NCBI GenBank assembly: GCA_000442015.1
Contig: KE560949.1
Span: 1-64,000, forward strand
Direction: 5' to 3'
DNA: 64,000 nt
DNA from: Rozella allomycis CSF55
Taxonomy: Eukaryota
Shown here in pieces: positions 10,617 to 56,270 of the stretch (position 1 is the first letter of the stretch; each line of letters starts with the position of its first letter). Below the pieces are notes generated by a model. It did not search any database. It was given only the letters and a program-made list of their open reading frames with translations, and was not told where the DNA came from. A program made the position numbers and the translations under genes.

Positions 10617-12704
10617 TCATTTAAAAGAACATTCATGCAAACAACCTGAAGGACATTTCTTGAAAGATTTGAACCAATCATTTATATGTTCAGAATGTCC
10701 ACCATGTCCACAAATTACGCAAGAAATATACAACCCCTTTACTGGCAGATTGCATAAACAACATCGATAAATCGATTGATGACAATGATCACAATGGAGG
10801 CTACCCGAAGCCAGCGAGTGGTTGCAGCTAGCACAACTAGACAAGTACTTCGTAGAACGCAAGTTTAGAAATAATATTCAAATTACTTGGTTCAGTGAAT
10901 AAATAGACGGAATGGTTTGGCATGCATTTACAATCCTTGTTACTTGAACCCATAGCTTTCTTCTTTTCAACAATTCTCTATGATATAAGACTTAAATTTA
11001 CCGATGTAACCTTCAATCCATTGCTTGCATATTTTTATCTTGTCCAAAGGAATTAAGTCTCTTAATAGTATGCATGCAACAGAGCATGTCTGAATATCTC
11101 CGTTTTCTGCAATGTTTATGAGAAAATCGTCGATCACTTTTTTCATAATACTTATGCATTCATGCTAATTTAATTTAAATTTAGGTATTAACTGCAGAGT
11201 TTTCCAATATGAATTGCAAAGTCGTCCAAAACTGAAATAACTCGAATAAACCAAGCTTTTCGCACAAAATTGCGTTTTCAGAAACATCTGCTACAGAGTC
11301 AAACTTATATTCCCTAGCCAAAGTAAGAAATATAGACGGATCTGATAATTTGAATGATTCTAAAACACGGCTTTGAAACAACAATTAGTTACTACAATAA
11401 TCGTTACTGGAATATTAATGGAACTTTTTGAAGCATTATTAATTCTTGAGAGCTTGCGGTATATAATTGAAGCGCCTATGGGTACTTTTCCTGTTGGTGT
11501 CTCACATATTGTCTTGTCATTTGTGCTCTCTTCGAATTTTTCAACACTTCCATAAACTTGATCGTCCAGTCCAAATGTTGAACATGTTTTGTTGAAGGTC
11601 TTCATTAATTCATAAGAGTTTTGAATATTTTGAGAGCAAACAGTTTTATCACGAGAAACACTGATGAGATTATTTGAGTCTAGCCATTTAATACACGTTA
11701 TCACATTGGAATGGTTCTCAAATGTCATTGAAGGTACATAACTATGTGTAATATCCCATACATGAACCCTATAATCCGTGAGCAATGAAGTTGATGCGAT
11801 TTGATTGAAATCAGGGCGCCAGCTAACATTAGATACACTGGAAATATTTTGAAAGCTATAAATTGGCTTCTTCAAATCCCCTTTAATATCCCAAACCTTT
11901 TATAAACTATATTGACATTTACTTTGACTATTTTATCACGCCCGCCAGAAACGATCCACCTTCCATCTTTATGCCAATCAACGCTTAATGTAACTCCGTT
12001 ATGACAAGTAATCTTTTTCTCGGGGATCATTGGATTTCTTATATCCCAGACTTGAATAGTCCCGTTTTCAAAAGCAGCGATAAATTCGTATGCGCTGAAC
12101 GGATGATATTTTACATCCCTTACAGCATCAGCTTTACCATTGAACGTTAATTTTGATGACAATTTACTTCTCAAGTCCTTGTTACTTGAAAAACGCAGTA
12201 ATTACCCATAGTTTAACTAAACCATCCTGTGAAGCTGAAAGAAATGTTGCTGATTCAAATTGACTTGCATGTAGCTTATTGATAGATCTTTTATGTTCTG
12301 ATATCATTTTCTCTACTGAATTCACAAAAATTAAAATACCTTGCTTAATTCTATCTGCATCCCAAAGAACAATTGCTCCGTTTGGTGATGCAGTTACAAA
12401 AATTCTTTTGTTGTCTTTGATTTGAAAGTTATTTAAGCATTACAATTCGGAAGCCAAATAACGTCTGTACTAGAATAACTCATGTTCATTTTGGTGCCAA
12501 TCCTAAAGTTGACGAAATCTTTCATGTTCCTCAAATCAACAATTCCCAGAACTTTCTATAGAAGAGAAAATACGTACCTTCTCTTCCAGCAATTATAGCT
12601 TTTTTATCTTTATCTAATACTGAAACTGAAGAAATGGCAGCATTAGATTCAAACTTTTGCATTTCTAGTTGAACTTGTGATTTTTCGTTATGAGAAAAAA
12701 TCAT
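10617..12704 (-). CDS. WDR24: GATOR2/SEA subunit WDR24 (Rtc1/Sea2); start either 12704 or 12662
   Basis: WD40 repeats (AVRDVKYHP, ENGTIQVWDIR, SGGRDK) and C-terminal RING CCLCNLPVKGLYISCVICGHGGH..CPSGCLHEC. Confidence 0.88.
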
Positions 12705-13554
12705 CTGGTCCAAATATTTGAAGTAAATAGGTAGTTTCGTTACAAACAGGAATTAAACGATAAGAGCGTTGCATTATACAAGTCCAAATCTACCAGAATA
12801 GCCCAAGCAAATAGGCATGACAATAGATATAGTAACGTTTTTCCATGTAAGTTTTCAACTATGTGCAATAATAGACGATGAAAATTTACTTCAGTTTTCA
12901 AATTCTTACATTAACGCAAGCCCTATTCCACCAACCTCGGATTCTAAAATAACGTACATTGCGTCACAGGCACCTATTCCAAGCACATTCAGCACTTTTT
13001 ATCAAATGATCTGGGATTACAAAATAGAATGCATAGTGATGCTTACCACTTACGACCCACGAAAGTGCGACAGATATTTGCCTTTGTCAGAATCCGATCT
13101 GGTGCTTCCAGATGGAACATTGGTTCGAATTAAAGAAGAGATCAACATAGATGCTGATATTAAAGTTTCCGTTGTGTGTATGGAAAAAGATGGATTGAAA
13201 CATTGTGTAAATCACATCGCGTATGCAGGCTGGGAAGATCATGGATGTCCCCGTAGCTTACAATCATTTTTTAAACTCTTGGAAACTTATCAGCGTTATA
13301 AATCGACATCTCCAGTGTTAGTTCATTGCAGCGCGGGAATTGGTAGAACTGGCACCTTTATCGCCTTTGATCGATTAAAGAATAGAATAGAAGCTCAAGA
13401 TATTGTAGAAATATGTGCTAATGAAGTATTTGAACTTAGAAAGTATAGAATGATGATGGTGGAACGTGCAGTAAGAAATATTCTCTTTATTGAATAGTCT
13501 CAATTCGCTTTTCTTGTTCAAGCTTTAACTGAATATAAACAGAAAAATAAATAA
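12690..13554 (+). CDS. Classical protein tyrosine phosphatase
   Basis: NRYSNVFP, YINAS, YIASQAP, WEDHG, VHCSAGIGRTG, RKYRMMMV; three short GT-AG introns. Confidence 0.9.
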
Positions 13555-13598
13555 TACATGTTTTAAAACGCCTACAAAACCTTATTGAAATTTCCATA

Positions 13599-15858
13599 AT
13601 GAAATTTGTTTCTTTGAGGTTCAAATTGGGCCGATATTTTTCCACAAATGTAATTAGCTGTTCATATTAAAAGTAGACCAAGAATGAAATCGGTTTGGGT
13701 TTATTGAATATCAATTTAAAGGAATATAAACCCGAGTTGATACGAAATTTTTCAATCAGTAAAATGTAGACAATTCCATCCAATAGTTGCCCATGTTGAC
13801 CACGGAAAATCCACCTTATCAGACAGGCTACTAGAGCTGACTGGAGTTATATCCAAGAGCAAAGCCAACAATCAAGTTTTAGACAAATTGCAAGTTGAAA
13901 AAGAAAGGGGAATTACTGTGAAAGCTCAAGTAACAAAGATCTTTGAATTATCATCAAGACTTCTTCAATGTTTTATAATTACAAAGGAAAGAAATATTTA
14001 ATTAATTTAATTGATACACCGGTACTCAACTCAAATTTATCGGAGAGGGCCATGTTGATTTTAGTTATGAAGTGTCAAGGTCTTTAGCTGCATGCCAAGG
14101 ATGTATATTGTTGATTGATGCGAACCAGGGAATTCAAGCACAAACCGTTGCAAATTTCTATCTTGCATTTTCAGAGGGATTGACTATAATTCCTGTTATA
14201 AACAAAGTAGCCGTGTATTAAATAACTAAAAAGATTGATTTACCTGGAGCCCAGCCGGAAAAGGTGGTAGAATCATTGAAAGAACAATTCGAGCTTCCAG
14301 TTGATAATGTTTTAAAAGTAAGATCATTTGATTGGTGTAATTGATATCCGCAAAGAGTGGCGTGAATATAGAGAGTATTCTACCCACAATCATTGAGCAA
14401 GTGCCACAGTAAATTTATCTTCCCATTTAACAATAGCCCGCCTTCCTCTATTGACAAGCCTTTGAAAGCATTATTATTTGATTCGTGGTATGATGAATAC
14501 CAGGGAATAATTTATCTCATTTCTGTAGTCGATGGTACATTGAGGAAGGGTAGGCATGTTGCATGTTAATGATGAGGTGACAAAGTGATTGCGTTTCATA
14601 AACAACAAGAATTTGAGATTTTAGATTTGGGAATTATGTATCCGGAAAGAACTAGCACTGGGTTCTTGTAAATTTATTTGTTTAAGAAATAAAGAAATGC
14701 TGGTCAAGTTGGGTTTATGATTACGGGCATTAAGAACGCAAAGGAAGCTGCAATGATCGGTGATACTTTTTATCGTCAGGGGACACCAATAGAGCCTTTC
14801 CCAGGCTTTAAAAAGATAAAACCTGTAGTGTTTGCGGGATTCTTCCCATCAGATTCCAGTGACACCAATGAAATGCAGAAAGCGCTGACTAGGTTGTTTA
14901 TGAATGATTCAAGCGTGACTCACGAGGTTGAAATAAGGTAATTATATATCATCTTGATAAAAGTGATTCATTGGGATCTGGATGGAGACTTGGATTTCTT
15001 GGGACTCTTCATTTGGAGGTCTTTAAACAAAGGTTAGAGCAGGTAAATGTTTCATTGCATGAGAATAGGAATATAATGCGTCAATGGTAATAACCGTGCC
15101 TACTGTCTCGTACAAAATGATAATGAAAAATGGAACAGAAAAGATTATTAGAAATCCATCGGAATACCCTGATACCAAAGAGTTTGGCAAAGTTGAAAGA
15201 TTTGAAGAGCCTTTTGTTAAAGGGACATTAATTATTGATAAGAAATACATGGGACCAGTTATGGGGCTATGTGAGGTACAAACTTTTTCAACGTTAAGAT
15301 AGGAAAAACGCGGGCATATGTTGGAAATGAAATTTATAGACGAGAATAGATGCATGCTTGTTTATGATTTGCCAATGATGGAAATTATCACTAAATTTCA
15401 CGACCAATTAAAATCCTTGACCTCTGGGTACTCTTCATTTGACTATGAAGAATCCGGATACCAAAAAGCAAATATTCGGCAGGTTTCTGTAAAGCTGAAT
15501 GGCGAAATTGTTGATTCATTAACATTTGTTGTGCATGATTCCAAAGTTCAACAGTTTGCGAGAAACGTGGCAAGAAAATTACAAAAGATGATTGACAGAC
15601 AGCTGTTTGAAATTTCAATTCAAGTGCTCTGTGGAAGTAAAGTTGTTGCCAGAGAAAAGTATGATTCTTTTGTTATTTGTGATTAGTGTAAAAGCTGTTC
15701 ATAAAGATGTCTGTGCAAAATGCTATGGAGGCGACATTACAAGAAAAATGAAATTAATAGAAAGACACAAGGAAAAAGTCAAAGCATTAAAGATGATTGG
15801 TAAAGTACCGGTGCCCCATGACGCTTTCCTATCAATTGCCACAGATCAAAATATTTAA
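13599..15858 (+). CDS. GUF1: Mitochondrial translation factor GUF1/EF4 (LepA), about 13 tiny introns
   Basis: [76 protein letters not shown]. Confidence 0.96.
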
Positions 15859-15991
15859 CAACATAAAAGTCTAACCTGTACAATAAAGCTTCTTCTTTTT
15901 GTATAGTTTGATGTTATCATTAATTTAATCAAAAAAGTTGCTTTGTATTAAGCGACCAAGATAACCCAAGCCACCACTTGAAGAAAAAATA

Positions 15992-17775
<1,784 letters not shown>

Positions 17776-17825
17776 TCTAATTGTACATTTATTCAAAATA
17801 AATGAAAAATATTGCTTATCTGTTC

Positions 17826-19150
17826 TCAATTTGATACATTTATCAGTCCAATCCCAACAGACATCACAATCATTCCAATCAACACCGCCTTGGACACATA
17901 CTTATCTTCCTTGTCCAATTTTCTTGCGGTTGGCAGCAACCCTTGTATTGACACAAACACCATCATCCCTGCAGTAATCGCATATATTATCCCTATATTA
18001 AAACTAACTTTTTATTACCCTCAAATAATGGTGGCATATGATTGCCAAGAAAATAGAATGCAATCAATCCTCCAAGCGGTTCAGCCATTCCCGCCAATAC
18101 CCCTGAATACAAAAACGCCTTCCATCTACTGCCTGTTGCATAATACACTGGCAGTGCTACAGATAACCCCTCTGGTATATTATGAAATACTATCGCTAAC
18201 GTAACAAGAAATCCTAGCTTTATATCCGCCAACGATGACACAAATGCAGCCATTCCTTCAGGTATATTATGCAATGCAAGTGCTATAGCCGTCTTCCATC
18301 CAAGTCTAAACAATTTCTTATTCAATTCATCTTCTTTTCTGTCCCATTCTTCACGATCTTTAGTTGCATCATCGTCCTTTTTGGGACCAGTTGTGGCATC
18401 TACATCTTCTCTTTCTTTTTGTTTCACAACTTTCTTTCTGTCCTTCTTTGTTTCTTCCGACTTTGATGAGGTGGATTTACCCGCCTTCCTGGCACCAGTA
18501 ACAGGCAATGTGTGATCAGGCTTTTGTTCTTTTTCAGCGATCCTTAATGATCTCCTCGTACGCAAGGTTCTTCCTGTATCAGCCTTTTGTTTTAATTCAT
18601 TCACCTCTCCTCTTTCATCATCACCTTCATGATCATCAGAATTATCCTCTTCCTTTTCATTCTCTTCCTCATCACTCGTCTCCGTTTCTTCCCTTTTTTC
18701 AAAACTCTCTTCATTCTTTTCATTCCCATCCACTTGTTTATCCTTGTCACTCTTTTCAATGTACTCTGCAAACGTATCAATAAGCGATGTCACAAGCATT
18801 CCAATCAAAAACACCAAACAAGCATACAGTCCAGCAAACTTTTTATCAATAAACCCAAACGCAACAATAGATTTAGGAACAAGCTCAACCAGAGATACGT
18901 ACAGCATCACTCCACCAGCAAATCCAAGCGAAGATGCTAAGAAACTATGCGATTTTACTATTTGGAAATTCGTGTATCTGGATAATTTAGTATCAACAAA
19001 GGGTAAAGCGGCACCGATCGCATTACTCAGTGTTCCGATAAATGTCATCATGAATGCTTTATGGACACCGGTTATTTCATTTGAAAGTTCAGCTGTTATT
19101 TGGCCGTAGCACAGTGCAAAAAGACACAAAAACAAGATCAAGTACATCAT
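17826..19150 (-). CDS. ZIP family zinc transporter (ZupT/GufA/ZRT3-like)
   Basis: LGFAGGVMLYVS, ALHNIPEG, FHNIPEGLSVALP, AEPLGG; acidic cytoplasmic loop. Confidence 0.9.
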
Positions 19151-19283
19151 GAAAATTCGTAATTAGTAAATAATGTGAATTGAAAATATTAAACTATTGC
19201 ACTTTTGTTTGAGTTTACTTGGTCAAGATTGGATAACTGTGTCATATCGAAAGGCAATTCCTTGAACTTTTTTTGAAAATTCC

Positions 19284-20026
19284 ATGTCGTCTATTCTAGT
19301 TAACCCTAACCAAGTATCAGCACAAAAAACAATTGTTTAGAAAGGAAATGGCTTGCTCAAATTTATCCGAAATGTGCCGTGGGAATACTTTGATGATGAA
19401 GCCAAACATCCACCAGCAGACTACATTCTAGGCGACACTACCGGAGCGGTTTTCCTTAGTTTACAGTTTCATCGACTTTATCCTGAATATATTTTCGATC
19501 GTATGAAAGCTCTTTTGAGGCATTTCAAATGTAAAATTTTACTCTGTTTGGTCGATGTTGTAAAAATTTGTATTTCTTGGCATTTAGAAAGATCACGAAC
19601 GGTCGATGAAGCAGATTACCAAATCATGCTTGCTTTATGGATTTACTTTGGTTTGTGCATGGTCTAATGAAGAAGCAGGCAGGTATATGGAAACTTTCAA
19701 GGCTTATGAAAAGAAATCGGCAGACATGATAAAGCCAAAGAGTGAACCTGATTTCATATCACAGGTAAATTTGATGTAAAATAGATTTTCAGTTGACAGA
19801 ACTATTGACAACAATTAAAAGCGTTAATAAAACCGATGTAATTACACTTGTCTCAAGATTTGGTGTAATGATTTTACAATATTTAAATAGTCGTTGGCGG
19901 GAATTATGAATGCTGATATCAATGAGCTAGCTATGTGCTCTGGAATCGGTCAAAGAAAGGTAAAAACATATATTAATTTGATTATTGGCGAAATACATTT
20001 TTGATACATTTAATAAAAGCATTTGA
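19284..20026 (+). CDS. RAD10: Nucleotide excision repair protein ERCC1/Rad10
   Basis: ILVNPNQ/KGNGLLKFIRNVPWEY, ADYILG, FLSLQFHRLYPEYI, AWSNEEAGRYMETFK, VNKTDV, HhH tail. Confidence 0.93.
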
Positions 20027-20164
20027 TCTGTTTGGGGGTCAACATTTGTGGAACAAATTTTTCACGCCATAAATGCAAAGTAAGGTTTCAACAATGGTTC
20101 ATAAAAAATGATGTATATGATATTCAATTTATGTCTTTAAATCTTTGCTATTAATTTCTTTCAA

Positions 20165-20544
20165 TTAGTTTGCTTTTTGAAATTCTTCCATTGTTAAAGT
20201 TTTTAGCGACAAAGCATGTAAGCCCTTTTTAAACTCATCGTCCAACACTTTGTAAACTGAGCGGTGTCTTTGAACAGAAATCTATTTGCCAAAATAAGAT
20301 TATAGTACCTTTCCTTTAAACTCATCAGAGACTATTGTTATACTAATATTATTAAATAGAAGAATACATACTTGAAGTGCGTTTCTGGAGAAGGAGCATC
20401 AGCAACGCCAGCGTGACCAGCGTGTTGGTTGGATTCGTCTACAATAACAAGTTTTGATGGTTTAAAAGCAGCTGTTAACTTTGATTCCATTGCAGTATAA
20501 AGTGGTCCAGTCATATTTTTCAAAAGTGGCGTAACGCGTTTCAT
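20165..20544 (-). CDS. BolA family protein
   Basis: IVDESNQHAGH..ETHF, VQRHRSVYKVL, LHALSLKT. Confidence 0.9.
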
Positions 20545-20646
20545 AAAGGAGAAGCTGAATGAATTGAACCAATTATGGAAGGCTTGGTATCCATAGGTTC
20601 ATAATTGAAATGGAAATGATAAAATATACTCATAGTGAAATGCCAT

Positions 20647-23600
20647 TTATTTAGTCAATTTAGACAGTCTGGTTTTAATTGTTAACTTTTGAAAGAAACT
20701 TTTTGCAACTGGATCCTTGCGATGTATTAAGACTCTCATTAGATTGTATTGAGAAAATGGATTGTCTAGAGAGGTGTCGATGTGATTAGATTTGGGAGTA
20801 CTCTGTGTAGTTGTTTGATATTCCCGCACTTTTCAAGTTAATTAAATCATATTACATAATTCTTCTGTTGAAAGATGAAAAGTTGTTGAAACAATTGTTT
20901 TGATTTTCTTTAGATTCAAGTGAACGACTAGAATGGTTAAAGAATGAAATTACAATCTGGAGAAAGGCCAAAAGATGTAGAGTCTTTTCTGGAAAATAGA
21001 TTCTCCAAATAATCAATGTCCTCTAGAATTATTTCAGTGTTATTTGGATAATATTTTCTTTTTCTGGTAGCCCCTAGCAAGATCTTTTCGTAAACCCTAA
21101 CTAGGGTAAGAAAGAATGAATGAACAATTAAATTTACATAATCGAATGGCACTAATTAAAACAATGACGATGACTTACCGCCTGAAACAATATCGTTTAG
21201 AATGGGATCAAGTACTTGATTCCCAATTCGTACCAAGTTTGACACTGAAGCATTAGGAATGTAAAGATTTTCAATGAAGGAGCTTTTAATATCGCAGTAA
21301 ACTACTTTGATTCCAAAATATTGAATGTAAGAATCAATTAAAGATTGAAGATGATTTTGAAGGTTTGAAATGACCAGGGTAGATGGAAGATAAAATTTGA
21401 CTCTTGATTCAAACTCTATTAGTTTTTCTTTTGCGTATATTGCATTGTTTATCATTACCAACAACTTTTGAATAAATTATGGAATCGATTACCTTTGTTC
21501 TTGATTGCAAGTTTAGAATTCGCTTAATCATATCGTTCATTGGAAGTAGTTCATATTTTTTCTTTTTAAGAATAGTTTTATCAAATATTTCCATTGTTAT
21601 TTCCATGTGATCAAATGGATCTAATTCATTTTCTTTCAATTGGCGTCCAATTGATGAATTGACAATTTCAAAATATTTTTCTATTGATTTCACAAGATTG
21701 GAAATAAAATAACTGGAATATTCGCCTTTTATTTTATCTGAAGGAAAAGAAGTGAAAAATACAAATCGTGAATTTATAAAAGCGAATAGATCCATAATTG
21801 AAGAAGAATAAAATACTTTTTCTTTTTCAATTGGATGAAATTCTTTATCCAAATCTAGGCACCTTTTCAGTGTGGAATTCAATGCTTGTGGAATTTCATT
21901 CATCCAATTCTTTATTAAAGGCCTTATCCATCCATCAACATCAATAAACTGTAAAAAATACATGAAATCTGCTTTACTATGTTATCAATCAAATTTGAAT
22001 CTTCCAAATACTCTTCTGCTATTCCCTTTAAAGTTGTTTCAAGCATAATTAACTGACAATGAAGCTCTATTAAAGATGTATTTAATGTTGTTTGCTGCGC
22101 TTTGTGAAAAAGCAAATTCAATAATTCACGCTTTAAAATTTCAACAAAAGGAAACAAAATTGATTCAATTGAATTTCTTATTGTCAAAACATCTTTAATG
22201 GATTTAAACAAATTCAATTATTGCAACATTTATTTATTACCTGACTGAAATAATTAACGTCTTTAATAAACTCTTTTATGCCCATAGACCATGTTTCTAT
22301 AATCTCAATTTCTACCCTGGAAAGAATATTCTTCATTCTATTTTCTAAACTTTCTTTAAACATTTCTTGGCAATTCACATCTACAGGAAATTCAGCCATT
22401 GTAGATCCATTCCTGTAATAGAAATGTTGTAACGTTGCTGTTTTCAACACTTCTTTTTCACAATTTAACAATTCAGGTCCCAACACTTTATTAAACACTT
22501 TATTAACAAATAAATTAAATTTTTCGTTGTTTATATTTTGAGATAATGTTTTCTCTAAAAGATTTAGATCTCCGACAGCCAGGATTTTACTAGGAAATTT
22601 CATTCAACTAATTACCAAATATTCAAACAATCTTGATCAACACCAAGATTATTTTTAAGTAAAATTTCATAGTCATCATTTTTATTTTCATTCACTTTAA
22701 AGTATTGTTGAAAGGCTCTAACAATAGTCTTAATCAAATAGAACATTGTCTCATTAAAGCGATGAGTCCAATGAATGTTTTCTCCTTTATTCCTTTTAGC
22801 TGTCATAATTTCAGCAGCAATTAATTCCATTTTCTCCAAATAATTAATCATTGAAAGGTCAAAATCACTAAAAAGAGAAACAACAGAATTCTCTAATCCC
22901 ATCTCTTTTGATTCATCCAAAAGCAAATTAAATAGCAAAATCTTATTTCTTCTTTCAAACGCATTCAATTCTTCGTTATCTTTTTGCATTTCGTTTTTGT
23001 TAATGTTTCTTAACAATGTAAATCTAAACATAACAGGATCCAATACAATTGAATGGCCTTGGGCAATTATCTGATAATCGTTAGATTTTACAATAGCTTC
23101 ATAAAATTGTATCATTGATGAAATGTATTCACTCTTCTTTCGTGATATTTCAAAGTACGGCCTTATTTGATCCTCTACAAACTTTAACATCTATTAATAC
23201 AATCAAAGCATTAGTACCAGCTTGTCATTATTGCCCTTTACAAGAAGTAAAAGCAACTCATATCCACCTTGCTGCAAATCATCTTTCGACATTTCAATGT
23301 TCAAAGGCAATCTGGCAGGCAAGTTTGGTAATGGTCTTGTTGGAAGCTTAGGAGATGATAACTCTGATGAGGTACTCATTGATATAGGGCTGTGTGGTCC
23401 TCCGATAGGGACAATTTTAAATATTTGTCGGTCTGCATTCCATTCAATTCTCACAGGAGTCTTATCTAATTGAGATATTCTGGTGTAATAATATCGCATA
23501 TCTTCTGGATCAAAGTCAAACCATCGCATTCTTTGAAAGTGAATGTATAATCTTACGCATGGATGGATTCCAGCACAAATGATTGCTTCAAACCATCAAC

Positions 23601-23663
23601 TTTGGCTGTCTTGTTTTCAATTTCATTTAAAAATATCCATCTTAAAAGAACATCGCCTTCCAT
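20647..23663 (-). CDS. MUN/Munc13-homology (MHD1) domain protein, multi-exon
   Basis: WIRPLIKNWM..LKRCLDLDKEFHP..YSSSIMDLFAFIN resembles the MHD1 signature (W..W..A...D..F.....SxSxxDxF); ORFs join through 26-29 nt introns. Confidence 0.55.
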
Positions 23664-24190
23664 CTATTGCCAGCGTCAGCCACATTAAAATCCTATATTG
23701 TGAATTGACATCTTTTTGTCATGTCTCTAAACATAAAGCTTGTTTTACTCTGAAATATAAAAAATGAAATCGTTGACGAAATTAAATTAATAATTTGTAC
23801 AAAGAGTGTTTATTGACAATTCGTTCATTAAACTAGTATGTGAATATCAGGGTCTAGGGAATGGAAATCTTCTTTAGAATACTTCCGCATTTACTGTTTG
23901 GTAATAGAATTTAGGAATTCTCACTCGTCCAGTATGACCAATGGTTTAAAACTGAATCTCATCATCTAATTACATCATACATGATAACATTTAGCATCTT
24001 AATTTTCGCTAAAATTAGATTTAAATAGTCGCGTTCAAATATGTTTGCTGAAAGGAATTCCGGATATGGCTGCGATCCCAATTTCAGCTCAATTGATATT
24101 ATGATAGTAAATTTAACATCATGAACTTATTACGCGTTCTTTAAAACATCAATTTCATTTCTTCAGATCGCAATTAGGAAATTTAGCAAA

Positions 24191-24576
24191 ATGAAGCTGT
24201 TTTGGGACTTGCTGTATAAAGACCGGGTACTTAATACTCAAGACTTGTATTATCAATTCAAAAAAGGAAGATGGCTACCACCTAAAATATCTGCATTAAC
24301 TCTCAAAAAATTGGATAGAGTAGCTAAGGCTTACAATGTTGACCCGCACAAGGATTTGGGATTACCTTTACTAGTCAAAAACCCCACACCTTTGACAACG
24401 CCAGAACCCGAATTGCACGTTAAAAAGGCAATTCTAAGAAAGTACTTTATTGCAGATCAAATGGAAAAAATGCCTGAATTGGAAAAGCAATATTACGAGG
24501 TAAAAGTTTAGACTACTTAATATAGAATGAAAGAGCCAAAAGAAGGAAGAGGCGTGAAATGAAATTTCCATACTAA
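24191..24576 (+). CDS. Probable mitochondrial ribosomal protein mL59 (MRPL25-like)
   Basis: GRWLPPKIS and IADQMEKMPEL motifs, small basic protein, one 26-nt intron. Confidence 0.6.
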
Positions 24577-24596
24577 AATTTATATTCAAAATTGAT

Positions 24597-25914
24597 TCAT
24601 TTCCTCGGCTTATTTTTGCTAATAATACCATTCATCCTTTTAATTATTGTATTTGTTTCTTCCACTGTATCCATGAAAAGATACATAATTTTGGTTTCTT
24701 TTGCACTTGAGATACTCAGTTTAATAGCATTTTTCACCATTAGGTCACTAGGATCTGTTAAACAACAACCAGTAAGACCTGTCAAGTCAATGATTGTTTC
24801 CTGTAGTAATACCTAAATTGATCTTACGTTTCCAGTTTCTGAATGATAAAGTGACAAATTTCTGCCATGTAAGACAAACCAGTATCTTTTCCAGAGCTTA
24901 CTTGAGGAAGTAAAAGTAAATTACTGGGATTATCATATCTTCTTTGTATAATGTTATAAATCCTTCCTGCTCTACAGTATCTGGCACTATTTGGGCTTCT
25001 TTCTCGTCTTCTTCGTAAAATGTTGCCACATACATATTCATTTGAGCTATACCGTCTTTGTCATGTGAATTCTTTCGCAGTAAAAACGTGCCAAGTGCGA
25101 AATCAGACGTGATTTTTGATTTAATCTCCAGATTCACTGACCCAAGAATTTGATGATTATTTGATAACGCGTATCCAATGTTGCTTGATTTACCTCTAAT
25201 GGTCCCCATAAAACTTTTTGTTTTTGAAGCGATCGACTTTTCCTGAATACTTTGGTTTAAGGATATTTTTAAGGGCATGTCATATTGTAGGTCTCTTCAT
25301 ACAAAAAAACTTTAAGCTATTACACCAGGAAAGAATCTTGCACGGACATTATTTCAAATGGTGAAAATGTCTTTGTTTTCAGGCAAATATTCCCTGAAGT
25401 CAGGGTGAGAAATATTGGAGATGAAGCTAATTAAATAAACGCTTATTTGGGTACTATCTATAGTTTGCTTCAGATGGATTTTATCTATTTTGATCAGTAA
25501 CTTGGCTTCCTTTTCATTGAAGGTTTGGGTTTTCATATCGGCAATATTATTGTTGAAAACACTTAATACATCAGCATGTTTCTTTGAATTCCCTATCTTC
25601 ATAGTTTTTGTTTTGTTCAGTAAGTCTTTAAAGGTAGAGCGACTCAAGGTGCTTTTAAAGCTTTTAATGCTTTGGGTATCGTCATCACTATGCATATTTC
25701 TTTCCTTAAGTATAACATAACAGTCGGCTTTTGTGTTAACATTCAAGTTTTCAATCCATTTTAAAGCATTTTCAGAGATAGCCGTAGAGTTAATATGTAA
25801 GTTTCCTGGAAGCCTTTCACGAAGAATAGTAGGTATAGATACTTCTGTGCTTTCATATGCGGTGTCTTCGTATTGAAATGAAGATACACTAAGTCGACGG
25901 GAAATAGAGTTCAT
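24597..25914 (-). CDS. PH-domain protein (possibly anillin/Bud4-like)
   Basis: C-terminal EQEGFITL..WKRYWFVLHG..IDLTG PH-like pattern; exons joined by canonical tiny introns. Confidence 0.55.
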
Positions 25915-25994
25915 CGTGGTAAACAAAAACAAAAACTTGTGAATAAACAACAACATCATTGTTGAAATATAATACAATGTTCATGTTATATTTA

Positions 25995-27707
25995 TTATGG
26001 TTGGGGGAGTAATATTCCTAGCCCTAACAGGAATGAAAACGGCAGGTATAAAACGTAAATTCCTATCAGGACAACTCCAAAATATCTTGGTATTTTATAC
26101 TTATAAAATGTTGACGTTGATACTAGTGTTATCAATGCCGCGAGGACAAGAACAGCGAACGCAAGGTAAATATCTATCATTCCTGTAAATGCAGGAAGAA
26201 TTGGACCATCACTTAAATTTAAATTCAGCAAAGACACCCCTAACGTCAAAAGGACGTTTTGTATAGGGCCACAAAATATTGCTGTTACTGCAGTCTCAAA
26301 ACTTCCAGATCGTGCAATTGCAATGTTTGCAATTAAATCCCCAAAAGAATTACCCCATGCTAAGATAATGATACCAAGAACTGCATCTTTAATCTTTAGG
26401 ACCATGCCAATAGTTTGAAGTAGCTCAACTACATCTTGAGTTACTGCGTAGATCCAAAATATAGTAACAACAAATGCATAGATGACAATTAATAAATTAT
26501 ACACGGGATGAGATTTCCATGAAGATGTTTTAGCAAAAATAAGTGAAAATATGAAGGATAATGTCATTACGATGTACGACAAAGGGAAGCCATTGATATT
26601 CTCGTTTAACTTTCCAGAAAGAAATAAGATTAAGAAAAAAGAGCAGAATGGATTGATAACAAGTCGAATTCTATAAAGAACTAGGCTTTCAAATTTCCAA
26701 GCATTGTTTTGATCTATATCCATGTCATCCAACAAAGGAGGGACAGACAAGATTGATATTAATTCTATAGGAGATTTTAAAATAAAGATAATTCTGTCAA
26801 TTAAATTAAGATTATGAAATCCTGAATAGTCTATCAAATATTTAGGCAAGTGTCTAAAATTAAATGTTGTTTCATTGGAAACGTCTTTAACTATCTTGTC
26901 TTCATTCGCAATCAAGCTATGTTTTCTGATTTGAAAAAGTATAACAGAGCCTATATGTAATGCATAAGTTATAAGAAAAAGAACCGGAACCCACAAAGGT
27001 AGATACCTTGTCTGAGCAATAGCAACTACCCCGACCACAGAAAGTAAAAATAAGATAATATTTTTAACAAATGAAACTTTTGAAAGCGAATTTTGACGCT
27101 CACTAACAAAAAATTGGATGCTTTCTTTTCTTGATAGCGTCGTTTGCATTTCGATTGCACCAGAAGACACAGTTGTATCTGATGAAGGTTTTTGAATGTC
27201 AACATCACAAAAATCAGATTTCTTTGCAACTAATATTACAATACCAAGCACAAATGTTGTTATAAACAAGCCAGATCCAACAGATGAACCAAATACCATC
27301 CCGGCTTTTTCTTGTGTACCGGTTAATGCTGTGAAAAAATCTGGAGCGCCATTTCCAATCGCTAAAAGTGTAACACCGGCTACATCAGGCGATAACTTCA
27401 AATATTGAGATATTATTTCAAGTGACTTGCATAAATGTTTATCTGATATTACAAATAGAAACAGGAAGAATAGTATAAGTAACATCAGACCGCATAAAAG
27501 CATCAGAAAAGGGCTCTTTAATTGACAAAAATACAAAGCATTGTAATTTATCATTGACTCTGACTTACATTCCACCAACGAATATCTACATGCATCACTA
27601 CTTGACAACGATGGCAAAGTTGTACAATCAAATTGGCTGCTTGAACTTTGCCCCAACACATTCGCTAAATGACTCACTAAGAATACTAGTAAGGTAAATT
27701 TGTTCAT
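25995..27707 (-). CDS. Cation/calcium exchanger (CCX/NCLX/Ecm27-like), intronless
   Basis: Alpha-1 repeat AGVTLLAIGNGAPDFF and alpha-2 repeat LAWGNSFGDLIAN; many TM helices. Confidence 0.92.
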   Translation of the reverse strand: MNKFTLLVFLVSHLANVLGQSSSSQFDCTTLPSLSSSDACRYSLVECKSESMINYNALYFCQLKSPFLMLLCGLMLLILFFLFLFVISDKHLCKSLEIISQYLKLSPDVAGVTLLAIGNGAPDFFTALTGTQEKAGMVFGSSVGSGLFITTFVLGIVILVAKKSDFCDVDIQKPSSDTTVSSGAIEMQTTLSRKESIQFFVSERQNSLSKVSFVKNIILFLLSVVGVVAIAQTRYLPLWVPVLFLITYALHIGSVILFQIRKHSLIANEDKIVKDVSNETTFNFRHLPKYLIDYSGFHNLNLIDRIIFILKSPIELISILSVPPLLDDMDIDQNNAWKFESLVLYRIRLVINPFCSFFLILFLSGKLNENINGFPLSYIVMTLSFIFSLIFAKTSSWKSHPVYNLLIVIYAFVVTIFWIYAVTQDVVELLQTIGMVLKIKDAVLGIIILAWGNSFGDLIANIAIARSGSFETAVTAIFCGPIQNVLLTLGVSLLNLNLSDGPILPAFTGMIDIYLAFAVLVLAALITLVSTSTFYKYKIPRYFGVVLIGIYVLYLPFSFLLGLGILLPQP

Positions 27708-28043
27708 CTATGATAATGTTTGCCTGCGCCACTCTATGAATTCTTTCCATGAGCAGTTAAATAAAGCAAATAAATCTACCACTTATTACTTAAGATAAAT
27801 TATCAGGCAAAAAGCATAAGCGTCATTCATTAAATTTTTCTAATTAAACAACCTTATTTATTGCATTCCAAAATTTCATTATTGGGAAGCGATGATAAGA
27901 GATTTATCAATCAATGATGCCGCTTCCATTTCAACATGATTTTTATAGGTAAATTCGATGAACTGACCTAGGATTCAGCTTTNTTTAGGAAGCGGTGATA
28001 AGAGATTTATCAATCAATGATGACGCTTCCATTAACATGATTT

Positions 28044-28568
28044 TTATAGGTAAATTCGATGAACTGACCTAGGATTCAGCTTTTTTCTACAGATCGGACA
28101 TAACTTTGTTGTTCTGCCAGCTTCTACTAGACACGAGTAACAACCCAAATGTCCACATGCCGTGGTAGATAATTCTTCGGCTTCTTCGTTCAAGCAAATA
28201 GGACAACGGACAGATGGTTTACTTTTCTTAGATTTCCTGGTCTTACAGTCTTCTCCACTTTTAGTTCCTTCATCTTCACTTATCAAGTCAATAACTACAT
28301 GTTTAAATTTATCATTAGAACCTCTATCGTCATCGCTGTCAACAATTATGACGGGGTTCGGTTGTTTGACTACAATCGGAGAAAGAATCTTATCTTCTAT
28401 TATATTTATGGTATCTTTTTTATCCACCTTGGATTTACGGCTAGTCCTTCGTGCAGACATCGAGTTCTGAAGAGTTTGAAATTTTGGTTTCCTGGGGTCA
28501 GGAAGAATAACATTTGGAGAATATTCATCGGAAGAAAATTCATAATTAAAGTCCACATTTGAAATCAT
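28044..28568 (-). CDS. RING E3 ligase with SUMO-interacting motifs (RNF4/Slx8-like STUbL)
   Basis: C-terminal C3HC4 RING CPIC..CGHLGCYSC..CPICRK ending HRIYL; SIM-like VIIVDSDDD and VVIDLISEDE. Confidence 0.75.
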   Translation of the reverse strand: MISNVDFNYEFSSDEYSPNVILPDPRKPKFQTLQNSMSARRTSRKSKVDKKDTINIIEDKILSPIVVKQPNPVIIVDSDDDRGSNDKFKHVVIDLISEDEGTKSGEDCKTRKSKKSKPSVRCPICLNEEAEELSTTACGHLGCYSCLVEAGRTTKLCPICRKKLNPRSVHRIYL

Positions 28569-28901
28569 TTTTGAATGAAAGACGCTGGTTTTTGACCCAA
28601 TACCTACTTAGCCACACGAAATGTCCAAGTCCTAATATCGTGATTGTTTGACACCATCTAGTCTCGTGATGTAACAAAATATAATTCGTCGAAAATTTAT
28701 ATTCATATTTCGAAATTATTGATCTCTTTTTACCTTCATGTATCATCTGAAACTCTAGCATAAAAACTCTATTCTTCATTTCATGATTTCATCAAAATGA
28801 TCTAATTCATTAAGATAAAGAAATCTTCAAAAAAATTATAAGTTTGCTATAAAAGTATGCAAATAATTTATAATTTTATTATATATATTATCATTTGAAA
28901 A

Positions 28902-29847
28902 TTAGAATCGAGGACGTCTTTTGCGAGCAGTGTATTTAGAATCTTCTGGCACATTAATTTTGCCTCGTTTTCTATTTAATTCCTTCTTTCTCAACACCCA
29001 ATCCTTATCTTTAACATTCTTTTTACCCTTCCTTTTTCTCTCCCTTGTTCGTTCTGATACGCTTGCCTGCACACTATCATCTTCACCTGTACCTAGAGCG
29101 ATAGGGGCTACATATTCTCCCGAGGAGCCAGTAAACAAGCAAAGATAATACTTTTTGGCTTTTGTGCTATGAGGATAGTCGATAACAATTCCACCGGTAA
29201 ATCCTGCCTTCATAGCGCTTGTTGTGATCATAGTAATCTGATCAGGATGATCAGGATAAAATTGAAAAACCGCGCGGGCACCTCTGCAAAGCGAAGAATA
29301 CAAAGTTCCAAAAAATCTATTCAGGCGATGGTAAGGGCTATTAATTTTCTTGTCAGCGTTACATAACCATTGGAGAGCGGATACACTTTTCTTAAAAAAA
29401 GTATGTTTTCTACCTTATTGCTCCATCAAATGAACCAGGCCTAAAGCAAACACCTGTTCCCATATCGTGAAGCATCAAATCTCCATCAGCTTCTCTTTCT
29501 CTTGCGATATCTAATAAAAACCAATCTGTTCAATGTACCCAACATTGAAGAACTGATGTCCAAGCCAACCCAATGATGACCGGACTCTGAAAGGACTTCA
29601 CCGGATAATCCAGACCCGCAACCAATATCCAAAATAAATCTTGGGGAATCGTCTTGTATGTTTAGTAATTCAATACATCTCTCTGACATTTCGGCTTGAA
29701 TCTGAATGATACGAGTACTGATTTTATTTGAAAAAAGTATGGATTACTTTGAAGAGTATTTTTTAGCCTCAGATTCGTTATAAAACTATTTTATTCATAA
29801 ATTTAAATTACTATTTCAGGTGGAGCTTGAAGTTCTGGCCTTGACAT
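28902..29847 (-). CDS. BUD23: 18S rRNA m7G methyltransferase Bud23/WBSCR22
   Basis: MSRPELQAPPE, LDIGCGSGLSG, AVFQFYP, GFTGGIVIDYP, SKYTARKRRPRF. Confidence 0.96.
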
Positions 29848-29954
29848 GATTTTCTAAATTTTTTGAAGCCAAGCCCCAGAATAAAATAATGTGAAACCTG
29901 CAATCTGGCTACTAAATTCTATAATTTCTCTTATCTTTACTTAAATAGCTATTT

Positions 29955-30060
29955 CATGGTTGTCCGCCTGAAAAGCTCAAGAAAGGAATCTTTGCATTCA
30001 AGAGCATGCTTTATGAATTATGGCTTTCTGGAACAGTCAGACTACTAAGGTTGCACATCT
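29955..30060 (+). ncRNA. Candidate H/ACA snoRNA
   Basis: H box AGAGCA at 30001-30006, ACA at 30055-30057 followed by 3 nt; second hairpin has a pocket 15 nt from ACA. Folded by eye only. Confidence 0.4.
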
Positions 30061-30130
30061 TAAGTTTTATTTTTGTCTTTTGATAGTGACATGGTGCTAA
30101 GAACGTAAGCCTCAAAAATTGAAATTTGAA

Positions 30131-31177
30131 ATGTCCAATTCCATAAAGTTGATTACTGGAAATTCACATCCCGAGTTGGCTAAACTTGTAGCCAAAAAAC
30201 TTCACGTGGAAGTAGCGAAAATACTACCTGTAAAGCTAACCAACCAAGAAATATCAATCATTATTGGGGAATCAGTTAGAGACGAAGATGTCTTTATTTT
30301 ACAAACTAATTGTGGAGAGATAAATGACCATTTAATGGAATTATTGATGATTATATCTGCATGTAAATCTGCATCAGCAAGAAGAATAACAGCGGGTACA
30401 GTCTAGTTTTGAATCAAAATAGTTTTACCATGTTACCCCTATTCTCGGGCAGATAAAAAAGATAAGGCTCGAGCTCCAATTACTGCAAAGCTAGTGGCTA
30501 ATATGATAACGGTTGCAGGGGCTGACCATATTATAACGTTAGACTTGTAAGGAATACATTCGACTTTATTTCGGGCATGCCTCACAAATACAGGGATTTT
30601 TCGATATACCAGTGGATAATCTATATGCAGAGCCTATGCTTGCAAAGTATATAAAAGAGAATATTCCAGATTACAAAAACGCAGTGGTTGTCAGTCCTGA
30701 CAGTGGTGGCGCAAAACGCTGTACATCTCTCGCAGATAGACTTGACACTGACTTTGCATTAGTATATAATATTAACTATATAAACGGTAGATTCATAAAG
30801 AAAGAAAACGCGCTAATGAAGTCTCGCGGATGGTTCTAGTAGGAGAAGTGGCAGGAAAAGTGGCGATCATTGTCGATGATATGGCTGACACATGTGGGAC
30901 TCTTGGTTTGGCAGCACAAGTATTGATTGAGCATGGAGCTAAATGTGTATATGCGATTGTAGTCCACGGGATTTTGTCCGGTAAGGCCCTGAAGGTTATT
31001 AATGAATCTGCACTATCGGAGGTTGTTGTTACAAATACAATACCACACCAAGAAAAGAAAGAAATTTGTCCAAAACTAAAGACAATTGATATTTCATGCA
31101 TAATATCAGAAGCTATTAGACGTACTCACAATGGAGAATCAGTTTCTTATTTATTTTCAAATGCACCGGGACTTTAA
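30131..31177 (+). CDS. PRS: Ribose-phosphate pyrophosphokinase (PRPP synthetase)
   Basis: [63 protein letters not shown]. Confidence 0.96.
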
Positions 31178-53587: not shown

Positions 53588-54224
53588 TTATTTTCCAGAA
53601 ACAATTCCATCAAACTTGAATCAATAAAATAATTTAATCTTACAGTTTTCTTGTACCATTCGATGGCGTCTTGTTTGGTCAATTTGTGTGGACGGCCAAC
53701 CTTAGCACGGCAGTGCTTGCGGCGAGCAACACGGAAACCAGGGCGGGAAAGGACAACATAAAAGTCCATACCGTAGATACCGATATTTGGATCATATTTA
53801 ATTCCAAGATCAATGTGTTCTTGAATACCGAATCCAAAGTTTCCAGTGTTAGAAAAGTTTTCTGATTTAAGTTCGTATTCCTTGACCTTTAATCCTCTTT
53901 CAAGAATTTCCTTTGCTTTTGGTCCACGAACAGTGCAGTGAACAGCGATCTTTTCATTACGACGAACACCGAATTGACGAATAGTAATGGCAGCCTTGGA
54001 GAAAACTGGGGTTTGACCAGTGAGTTGTTCAAGAACTTTAGCAGCACGAGTGAGACGATCTCCGGATTCACCAACACAGATATTTAAGCAAAGCTTCCAG
54101 ATATAGATATCACGCATGACGTTTTTCTTTGCTGATTCCTCGGCCTAAATATTAGTTTGCACTTTTAAAAAATAAAATAACATGTTCAACGTTAAAATAA
54201 CAAAAGTGGACGTATTTTTACCAT
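53588..54224 (-). CDS. RPL11: 60S ribosomal protein L11 (uL5)
   Basis: [42 protein letters not shown]; introns 54145-54221 and one of 29 nt near the 3' end. Confidence 0.97.
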
Positions 54225-54306
54225 TTCTAATACAGGGGTGAACAGGGGTCTTGGAAAAAAAGAATTCTGAAAATTCAAAGTCCGAAATTTCAGGCGATTT
54301 TGAGTT

Positions 54307-56270
54307 TTATTTAGTTATAATAGTTATCAAGTTATTAATATGATTCGAAAGTTGAGAGGAAACTCTATTCAAATTTTGTTGAAGGTCTGTCACACTTGAA
54401 GGGTAGTCTCTGTCTAAGAGCCGAGAATTTGATGTTCCATAAGCCATGTAAATGCAGGATTGAATGTGTTGGCCTTGAAGATATTTAAGTTGACAGATAT
54501 TTTCTTTTAAATATTGTATGAAAGTGTCGAATTGCAACTTTCTAATTAAGGTTTCAAATTTTGCTATGAATATGATAAAATTGTTGTGATGTGTTTCAAG
54601 TGCTTGGAAGAAATTTTCAGTACTGGGATCCTTTTTAGAAGTTTCGCCTAAATGTTCCAATGATTGCAATAATATAACATTTGCGCTTTGAATCTTTATG
54701 GATTGGATTCGCTCTATTTTTTCACAGAATGATTCATCGAATGGAATATTAGAAAGATTATTAGTTAGAGGATAAAGATATAAAATGCTTCTTAGTCGTG
54801 ACATCCCAGGGATTTGATTAACCATTTCTCTCATCGTGTTTGAAATCATACTTTTTTGCCATTTAACAAATTCAAGATTGTATTGATCATTTATAGTTAT
54901 AGAATTTTTCATTTCTTTTAAAAGATTGAAATACTTTTCAAACATTGTATTGTAAATCATAAAGTCAAAGTGGTTAGAGGTAGAAAAGAGTACTTTGGAT
55001 AATTCTATCCAAATCAAACCCAATTTACTTATTTGTTTTAGTGTCTCTGATGTTATTTGTGTTTTACTTTCAGGATTTTTCTCATATATGTGGATTAGAT
55101 CATTGAGGCTTTGGTCTATTTTATCCATCAAAGATAGACAGTCGTTGATTAAAGGTTTACCATTACTGAAAGTTATTTGTTTCACGTTATTGCTTTCAGA
55201 TTGTTTCTCTTTAATGCCATCTCGCACTTCAAAGATTATTGGCAGCACTTTGTTTATGTCATCTAGCATTGTTTCTGATAGTCCGCTATGATTAGTCCAT
55301 AACTTAGAGATGTGATCGTCTTTATTCTCTTTTTGGGTAATATCCCATGAAATGGGTGTGTTGCAAATAGTATCGATGCATGAAATATCTTGAAAGTCTA
55401 TCAATGTTCCGTCTGCACTAAATTCTATAAGATCTTGGTCATCAATTTTATCATTTTCTATGTTTTATTTATGATAGAAATGTTACCTGAAAGACATCCA
55501 TCCTCTCCATTCCAAGAGACTTTGTAAGGAACTTTGATGACTAAATCTTTCCTTAATGCTACTAAAGCGGTTATTTTAACATAATAATCAATATTTATAG
55601 TTTTTGATAACTTTCCGTCCGGCCCTAAACCTTCTTTGAATTGAGTGCTTGGGCAAAGCATGTGGATACCTTTCCCTGTATAGACAGAAGCAACACAATC
55701 AACGGCTACATTAATGTCAGGCTTAATAGAAAATAAAATTTCTTTTTTAGAGCTTCCCTTTTCAAATCGATGCTCTACATATGCGATAGTTGATTTGTAT
55801 TGTTCACTTAAAGTGGGATGAATTACAAATGAAGCCTTTTGTTTTAAAGTTACCTTTAGCCCACTACAAACTTTTGAAGGATCTTCCAATCTAACTTTTA
55901 ACGTCAATGGGTCTTCAGGTCCAACAATATCTTTCTCTAGTGTCACTTCAAGATTCAAAAGTTTCTTTCTCGGAATGAGAAACGGTTTCGATTTGGAGCT
56001 TTCGAAGACCGATTTTGGAACAAATGATTCAACATGGCGAACATTGAACGATAAACAAGCGCATGAATGTTGATGATATATCCATGCATTTCTAAATATA
56101 TTCCCTGCTTCAATGACGCGGTTGCCAATATCTGCTATAGAATTTTGTTTGCCCAGGTACGCAAACACTATATACGAAACGCCGCATTCTTGTTCCGACG
56201 GATACATAGTCAAAGACGGTGGTAAATGACTTGGAATATTAATAGCAAACGGAAAGTAATTATCATCTGG
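54307..56270 (-). CDS. Arrestin-domain protein with helical C-terminal extension; 5' end missing at the gap
   Basis: FPFAINIPSHLPPS..CGVSY, LNLEVTLEKD..LTLKVRL..LKVTLKQ, IDYYVKI; joined to ORF 54307-55404 by a 29-nt GT-AG intron. Confidence 0.7.

Follow-up and report, generated by a model that had tools for sequence, protein, structure and literature searches.

The first 64,000 nt of contig KE560949.1 of Rozella allomycis CSF55, here called the window, raise the question whether the very short spliceosomal introns of this organism have to end in AG. Six intron-like stretches, located in the genes for WDR24 (two sites, WDR24a and WDR24b), GUF1, RAD10, a MUN-like protein and ribose-phosphate pyrophosphokinase (PRS), begin with GT and carry TG or GG where an intron of normal length would end. 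The best reading of the sequence is that these would be normal introns with TG or GG as productive 3' end, at a rate far above that of other eukaryotes (roughly 3–8% of introns; roughly 2 to 6 of about 82). The original prediction had estimated approximately 6 of 70 to 80 introns, which fits the 76 canonical AG introns counted here.

Canonical introns and putative non-AG introns of the window

The window is AT-rich (G+C content approximately 28 to 38%), uses the standard genetic code and contains genes split by very small introns. Its origin from R. allomycis CSF55 is reflected by a public WD40 repeat-like protein of this strain, which is 100% identical to a 179-residue exon of the window; another gene of the window matches the R. 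allomycis rad10 protein.

A training set of 42 unambiguous GTA..AG introns of 26 to 31 nt was taken from adjacent open frames and used to train a gene-chain model, and the count of canonical introns was limited to well-supported gene chains. In these, 76 canonical GTA..AG introns were found, all of them 25 to 31 nt long (25 nt, 1 intron; 26 nt, 19; 27 nt, 18; 28 nt, 23; 29 nt, 9; 30 nt, 4; 31 nt, 2). They end in TAG (40), AAG (28), CAG (6) or GAG (2), and the most common 3' pentamer is AATAG (14 of 76). A sharp branch-site consensus was not found in the 42 training introns. Between positions -12 and -3, an unused AG is present in 19 and an unused TG in 28 of the 76 introns; the 3' site of the canonical introns seems to be chosen by position and not as the first AG. 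The part of a study on single-cell fungal genomes considered here gives species medians for intron length of 29 to 197 bp (PMC8042348), of which the value of 29 can be assigned to Rozella only as a guess. The intron density reported for Rozella is 2.5 per kb (PMC8476143), and that of GUF1 in the window is approximately 6 per kb of coding sequence. An earlier dynamic-programming gene model was discarded, as it over-predicted introns (768 in total).

All six non-AG stretches of the original prediction are present in the window. Each of them starts with GTAA and is 26 to 29 nt long; five end in TTG and one in CGG. For comparison with the canonical introns, an intron-likeness score was calculated from a donor profile, a pre-acceptor profile and the length, leaving the last two bases unscored. 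The scores of the six sites (WDR24a, 12.1; WDR24b, 11.1 or 10.0; GUF1, 12.7; RAD10, 15.4; MUN-like, 14.6; PRS, 9.1), i.e. 9.1 to 15.4, fall within the range of the 42 training introns (6.2 to 16.5), and their donor scores (5.7 to 10.0) compare with a training mean of 7.1. At every site, the alternatives ending in AG score 7 to 21 bits below the TG or GG version. These alternatives are 31 to 60 nt long, all at least 35 nt except for one 31-nt option in PRS, compared to 25 to 31 nt for 76 of 76 canonical introns.

The GT(A) donor and the length of 25 to 31 nt, which characterize the tiny U2-type introns of Rozella, are thus found in all six stretches and the terminal AG in none, with T at position -2 in five cases and G in one. 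The last G is retained in six of six, compared to 12% G inside introns, and position -3 is a pyrimidine in all six. Three of the six end in AATTG, a single change away from AATAG. Minor-type (U12) introns have the 5' consensus (A/G)TATCCTT and the branch site TCCTTAAC. The donors of the six stretches (GTAAGA, GTAAAA, GTAATA, GTAACG, GTAATT and GTAAGG) do not correspond to this type, and none of the six contains a TCCTTAAC-like motif.

Reconstruction of the encoded proteins

The reading frame and the conserved protein are restored upon removal of the non-AG stretch in PRS, GUF1 and RAD10; restoration is weak in WDR24, and in the MUN-like gene it concerns the frame only. The PRS gene (30101..31174, + strand), for which four exons were found, contains the stretch at 30547..30574 (+), 28 nt long (GTAAGG..TTTCGG) and in phase 2, with the split codon TT|G encoding Leu. 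The exons are very close to human PRPS1. The exon 5' of the intron aligns to PRPS1 residues 89–128 and the exon 3' of it to residues 130–191, so that both meet at D128 and H130 and the split codon supplies residue 129; the intron is therefore exactly 28 nt long and ends in GG. A shift by a single base would give an intron of the form TA..GG. With any of the four in-frame GT-AG options, unrelated residues take the place of a conserved core of 12 residues; these options score between -3.1 and -7.3, compared to 9.1 for the GG version. A query with the PRS exon against metagenome contigs gave 80 loci with at most 77% identity (at most 76% over the whole exon), none closer than the human protein.

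GUF1 (13741..15858, +) encodes the homologue of mitochondrial LepA/EF4, and its spliced product of 606 amino acids matches positions 7–598 of the 601 positions of a LepA profile. This profile was built from 75 bacterial proteins translated from 80 loci, five of which were dropped (<520 residues). At least 11 introns were reconstructed; 10 of them are GTA..AG introns of 26 to 29 nt, and the other one is the stretch at 14318..14343 (+; 26 nt, GTAAGA..GTAATTG). With TG as the 3' end, the product reaches 768.8 bits against the profile without any gap. The sole AG option, an intron of 38 nt, is in frame and uses an AG 12 nt downstream; it reaches 751.9 bits, 16.9 bits less than the TG model, with a four-residue gap that deletes ISAK, including the SAK of the GTPase G5 motif. 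The comparisons with homologues show that in PRS and GUF1 only removal ending at TG or GG would restore the conserved protein, and for these two genes it is well supported from the alignments that such removal would be real and beyond chance.

The RAD10/ERCC1 gene (19284..20026, +) has five introns, four of which are canonical. The last one (19960..19987, +; 28 nt, GTAAAA..GATTATTG) has the highest score of the six (15.4). An ERCC1 profile was made from 79 homologues, namely those covering the C-terminus among 150 proteins listed, and the 12-residue tail was compared with 77 of the homologues. The TG model (28 nt removed) reached 276.8 profile bits and a mean BLOSUM value of the tail of +5.53, the read-through product with retained intron 274.7 bits and -1.73, and the alternative with a 60-nt GT-AG intron (AG60) 268.5 bits and -21.95. 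The tail of AG60 is non-homologous and its product lies 8.3 bits below the TG model; by this comparison, the AG60 solution can be regarded as excluded. Between TG and read-through, the tail of the former is better in 47 of the 77 homologues, equal in one and worse in 29, so that TG would be favoured over retention. Pairwise comparison of the tail with one Pneumocystis protein gave near-equal values (47, 45 and 43).

The MUN/PATROL1-like gene (20677..23660, -), whose family name relies on a weak Pfam match (TPR_PATROL1, E 6.9e-4), has nine introns, eight of them canonical. For the ninth (22215..22240, -; 26 nt, GTAATA..AATAATTG, score 14.6), a GTA..AG solution was not found, and the in-frame AG options score -6.5 (35 nt, with GTTGCA as donor) and -3.8 (53 nt, with GTCAGG). 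Removal at TG is probable for both RAD10 and the MUN-like gene.

WDR24 (10617..12662, -; approximately eight introns) encodes a subunit of GATOR2. The C-terminal exon aligns to human WDR24 715–789 (E 3.5e-11), and the N-terminal part matches the public protein P0001. WDR24a (10860..10886, -) is 27 nt long (GTAATT..AAACTTG) and contains an in-frame TGA. An in-frame GT-AG intron of 39 nt ending at 10848 is the alternative, with a score of 2.9 compared to 12.1 for TG. In the following exon, the alignment with human WDR24 does not begin before residue 5, and the remote homologue P0005 slightly favours TG (168 vs 163). The exact 3' end of WDR24b (11379..11407, -) is uncertain, as the intron may comprise 26 nt (ending at 11382 with CTAATTG; score 11.1) or 29 nt (ending at 11379 with TTGTTG; score 10.0). 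GT-AG options of 41 and 38 nt score -8.9 and -8.5, and P0005, the single remote homologue found, again slightly favours TG (32 vs 27). Use of TG at the two WDR24 sites is ambiguous and is suggested mainly by intron geometry. Another intron of this gene (11166–11193, -; 28 nt) has the donor GTTAAT and not the usual GTA, and ends in TTAG.

The original prediction held that none of the six introns has a usable AG. This holds for PRS, RAD10 and the MUN-like gene and in substance also for GUF1, where the AG at +12 nt costs the ISAK residues; it was overstated for WDR24a and WDR24b. The in-frame GT-AG solutions at WDR24a (39 nt), WDR24b (41 or 38 nt) and GUF1 (38 nt), together with the 89-nt and 60-nt introns of the public gene models, could be taken to indicate that other AGs are the true acceptors and that the proteins differ from their homologues by in-frame deletions or altered segments. 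This is improbable, since homology contradicts it in GUF1, PRS and RAD10, and since introns of such lengths are found among 0 of the 76 canonical introns (the 31-nt option of PRS apart) and the options score only -8.9 to 2.9.

Sequence support and allelic variation

Nine single Ns and one or more assembly artefacts are present in the window, and the non-AG ends might reflect errors in sequence or assembly, the true bases being AG. Contigs from separate sequencing runs argue strongly to the contrary. Contigs without any difference to the window cover 10700–12608 or 10700–13563 at WDR24a and WDR24b (runs X1 and X2, from separate studies) and 29026–30690 at PRS (X1, X2 and X5, likewise), and a diverged second allele at GUF1 has no listed difference at 14342–14343. 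An error in the consensus is thus contradicted directly at three sites and indirectly at GUF1, and is very improbable as an explanation of the six.

The second allele was found in the DNA runs, at about half depth in places, at 14179–14391, 20150–20357 and 23750–23944. It is characterized by clustered substitutions and small indels, e.g. 6 nt inserted behind 18971 and 9 nt omitted at 23944, and the strain looks heterozygous. The allelic differences considered here are those listed, 40 out of 320. In the GUF1 block (14179–14391), differences are listed at 14335, inside the intron, and at 14349. Since a difference at 14342–14343 would have equal support in the same contigs, the TG is probably common to both alleles. 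Eight of nine listed exonic differences in GUF1 are synonymous and one is V>L; one of the nine is located in the 12-nt stretch that separates the TG from the next AG. All three listed for RAD10 are synonymous. An A inserted in the neighbouring canonical intron is tolerated, as expected for sequence that is spliced out. Because 11 of the 12 listed differences in the two genes are synonymous, the genes are not decaying, which argues against pseudogenes and shows that they are still under purifying selection. Heterozygosity could serve for such selection tests genome-wide.

These data also bear on the possibility that the acceptors are dead, the introns being retained or mis-spliced in gene copies that are broken or being lost in a reduced parasite. 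Other fungi can do without GUF1, RAD10 and WDR24, which would make such a loss conceivable. In human genes, mutations from AG to TG inactivate acceptors (PMC2374985). Against this stands that the rest of the genes is intact (canonical introns in GUF1, 10 of 11; MUN-like gene, 8 of 9; RAD10, 4 of 5; PRS close to PRPS1), that the listed allelic differences are nearly all synonymous, and that all six changes affect position -2 and none the terminal G or the donor GT, which random decay would not produce. Moreover, the absence of a listed difference at the GUF1 TG in the diverged allele suggests that selection continued after the TG arose. Dead acceptors are accordingly a rather unlikely explanation.

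Placement of the 3' splice site

The six stretches are likely to be ordinary tiny, A/T-rich spliceosomal introns of Rozella in which the A at position -2 is replaced by T or G and which are still removed at that exact position. Retention of donor, length, last G and a pyrimidine at -3, together with the unused AGs inside canonical introns, suggests that the site is fixed by distance. The 3' site of such short introns would be set by the distance from the branch point or the 5' site and not by scanning for AG, and U or G at position -2 would be tolerated at exon ligation. Since three of six end in AATTG, one step from the most common AATAG, they look like point-mutated acceptors that are still functional. 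In structures of the spliceosome, pairing between the last G and the 5' G is still present at the second step, and U or G can be tolerated at position -2. In yeast, second-step prp8 alleles rescue reporter mutants with UuG or UgG as 3' splice site. With U or G at -2, exon ligation is reduced there but not abolished, the terminal G being the stricter requirement; these are engineered and not natural constitutive sites. The relaxed acceptor rule put forward in the original prediction, for which altered U2AF1, Prp8 or Slu7 was named as a possible cause, is supported in its core by homology at PRS and GUF1, while the term "NG" was too wide, as only T (five) and G (one) are found at -2.

Tandem sites, in which a nearby downstream AG in the exon serves early recognition, TG or GG is chosen in the second step and use of both sites gives productive alongside non-productive or shortened mRNAs, would be a different solution known from humans. 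There, TG 3' splice sites were described in 36 genes, in U2-type GT introns with an AG no more than 28 nt away (Szafranski et al. 2007, PMC2374985). The sites of the window resemble these tandems as U2-type GT introns with a TG end and a pyrimidine at -3. At five of the six, the next AG also falls within this limit, after 12 nt in GUF1 and WDR24a, where it is in frame, after 8 or 11 nt in WDR24b, 19 nt in PRS and 22 nt in the MUN-like gene. In RAD10 it is 32 nt away, beyond the human limit. An AG within 28 nt is expected by chance in approximately 80% of cases (from rough base frequencies), and its proximity therefore carries little weight. In contrast to the human cases, splicing to the AG would cause a frameshift or give a non-homologous product in PRS, the MUN-like gene and RAD10, so that at least these three genes would have no productive site other than TG or GG, and this in about 3–8% of introns. 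Tandem splicing of the human type is the less likely reading but still a live one.

Removal of ordinary tiny introns at TG or GG may be extended further, if only tentatively. The 3' sites could be placed by a ruler and not through recognition of AG, and several percent of the introns of the whole genome (hundreds) could be spliced constitutively at UG or GG, through loss or divergence of factors reading or proofreading the AG (the small subunit of U2AF, Slu7/Prp18, Prp22, surfaces of Prp8), in the direction of the stripped-down microsporidian spliceosome.

Comparison with known non-canonical introns

In the human transcriptome as a whole, 184 U2-like non-canonical sites were reported, including GT-GG in BANP and GT-TG in GNAS and TSPYL2 (Parada et al. 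2014, PMC4176328). Such sites go back to an AG in relatives and give rise to erroneous annotation. The sites of the window share with them the GT-GG or GT-TG ends in an otherwise normal consensus, but amount to up to six in 64 kb, in contrast to 184 in an entire transcriptome. In Fritillaria-type tunicates, 95% of the introns are reported to escape GT/AG at both ends, which was tied to changes in U2AF and snRNA (PMC13326754). Rozella would likewise be a lineage with a relaxed rule for terminal dinucleotides; unlike in the tunicates, approximately 95% of the introns found here have GT and AG ends, and variation is confined to acceptor position -2. Microsporidia, the sister lineage, have very short introns, and those of Encephalitozoon cuniculi are spliced to less than 20% when short (PMC6349667). 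They resemble Rozella in these very short introns and as a reduced parasite lineage; the available excerpt of that paper does not mention non-AG ends. In the literature covered on splice sites, introns and the spliceosome of Rozella, non-AG acceptors are not reported.

Several points weigh against productive splicing at TG or GG. Human TG acceptors require an AG close by and do not function as the sole site, and where AG is mutated to TG the site is no longer used (PMC2374985). The related microsporidia splice short introns poorly, and low efficiency is therefore possible at the Rozella sites as well. RNA runs carrying this locus were looked for and not found, and metatranscriptome X9 gave only chance pieces of 20 to 33 nt. 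Both WDR24 sites have in-frame GT-AG alternatives, and if the 28 nt in RAD10 are read through, the frame stays open and the tail is only slightly poorer than that of the TG model (274.7 vs 276.8 bits). Since GTA..AG introns served as training set for the length and donor profiles, the scores are biased against long alternatives and those with a non-GTA donor. Finally, a scan of all GT donors with flanking open frames gave 120 donors without and 67 with an AG solution and was too noisy for a rate, as most were artefacts, either antisense or inside exons.

If confirmed at the RNA level, Rozella would offer a natural system in which, at the percent level, U2-type introns have no productive acceptor other than UG or GG. 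The need for AG recognition would then be directly testable in a lineage positioned between fungi and the intron-poor Microsporidia.

Further non-AG calls came from the second gene model. Those at 14565, 47988, 50231 and 57111 were judged spurious by eye or by homology, the call at 13471 was a bridge joining two genes, and those at 42162 and 42279 were hops around an N. The call at 11392 is one further option at WDR24b, and that at 59133 is better explained by a GC-AG candidate in a PIF1-like gene described below.

Consequences for the public annotation

The expectation that gene finders mis-annotate these genes was borne out. The public WDR24 protein (P0001, 406 amino acids) reads through the GTTAAT..TTAG intron, where it ends (ENSAVNT*), and is thus truncated and devoid of the RING end; it also uses an 89-nt GT-AG intron (11304–11392, -) that deletes a conserved segment. 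In the public rad10 protein (P0002, 224 amino acids; 19865–20019, +), two junctions are wrong. It has a 60-nt GT-AG intron followed by a false, non-homologous tail of 44 residues, and the nine true residues VITLVSRFG, aligned to human ERCC1 235–258, are omitted. A model allowing AG only breaks PRS, the MUN-like gene and WDR24 at the sites concerned; it splits both PRS and the MUN-like gene and gives GUF1 a 54-nt intron. The public Rozella proteome, which is widely used in fungal and microsporidian phylogenomics, is therefore wrong at these genes, and intron counts and orthologue calls of Rozella may be affected genome-wide. Protein searches with a word index returned almost only proteins of Rozella itself, and searches of PDB with short exons gave no useful match.

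Other features of the window

Scans of the window with Rfam and for tRNAs gave no hits. The stretch 16703–18703 comprises the genes for a DEAD-box helicase and a ZIP transporter; a query with the latter against metagenome contigs found no relatives. In run X2, the summed contig depth of this stretch (approximately 790 to 890) is about twice that of the nearer flanks (approximately 370 to 420), for which a repeat or allelic bubbles may be responsible. A stretch of 101 nt (27933–28033) around the N at 27983 is left out in the contigs of each of the three DNA runs, and 50 nt fit on either side; here an assembly gap of the window has probably been joined with a duplication. Between coding-like frames at 54100–54310 (-), in-frame stops are located at 54307–54309 (TAA) and 54145–54147 (TAG); a short canonical intron was not found around them, and an intron of approximately 76 nt or gene ends may explain them. 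A PIF1-like helicase gene (Pfam PIF1, E 1.6e-15) consists of two large open frames with a single in-frame TAG between them, which is not enclosed by a GT intron. By eye, a 27-nt GC-AG intron (59121–59147, -; GCAAAA..TTTTAG) would remove this TAG and would represent a non-canonical donor in the same genome.

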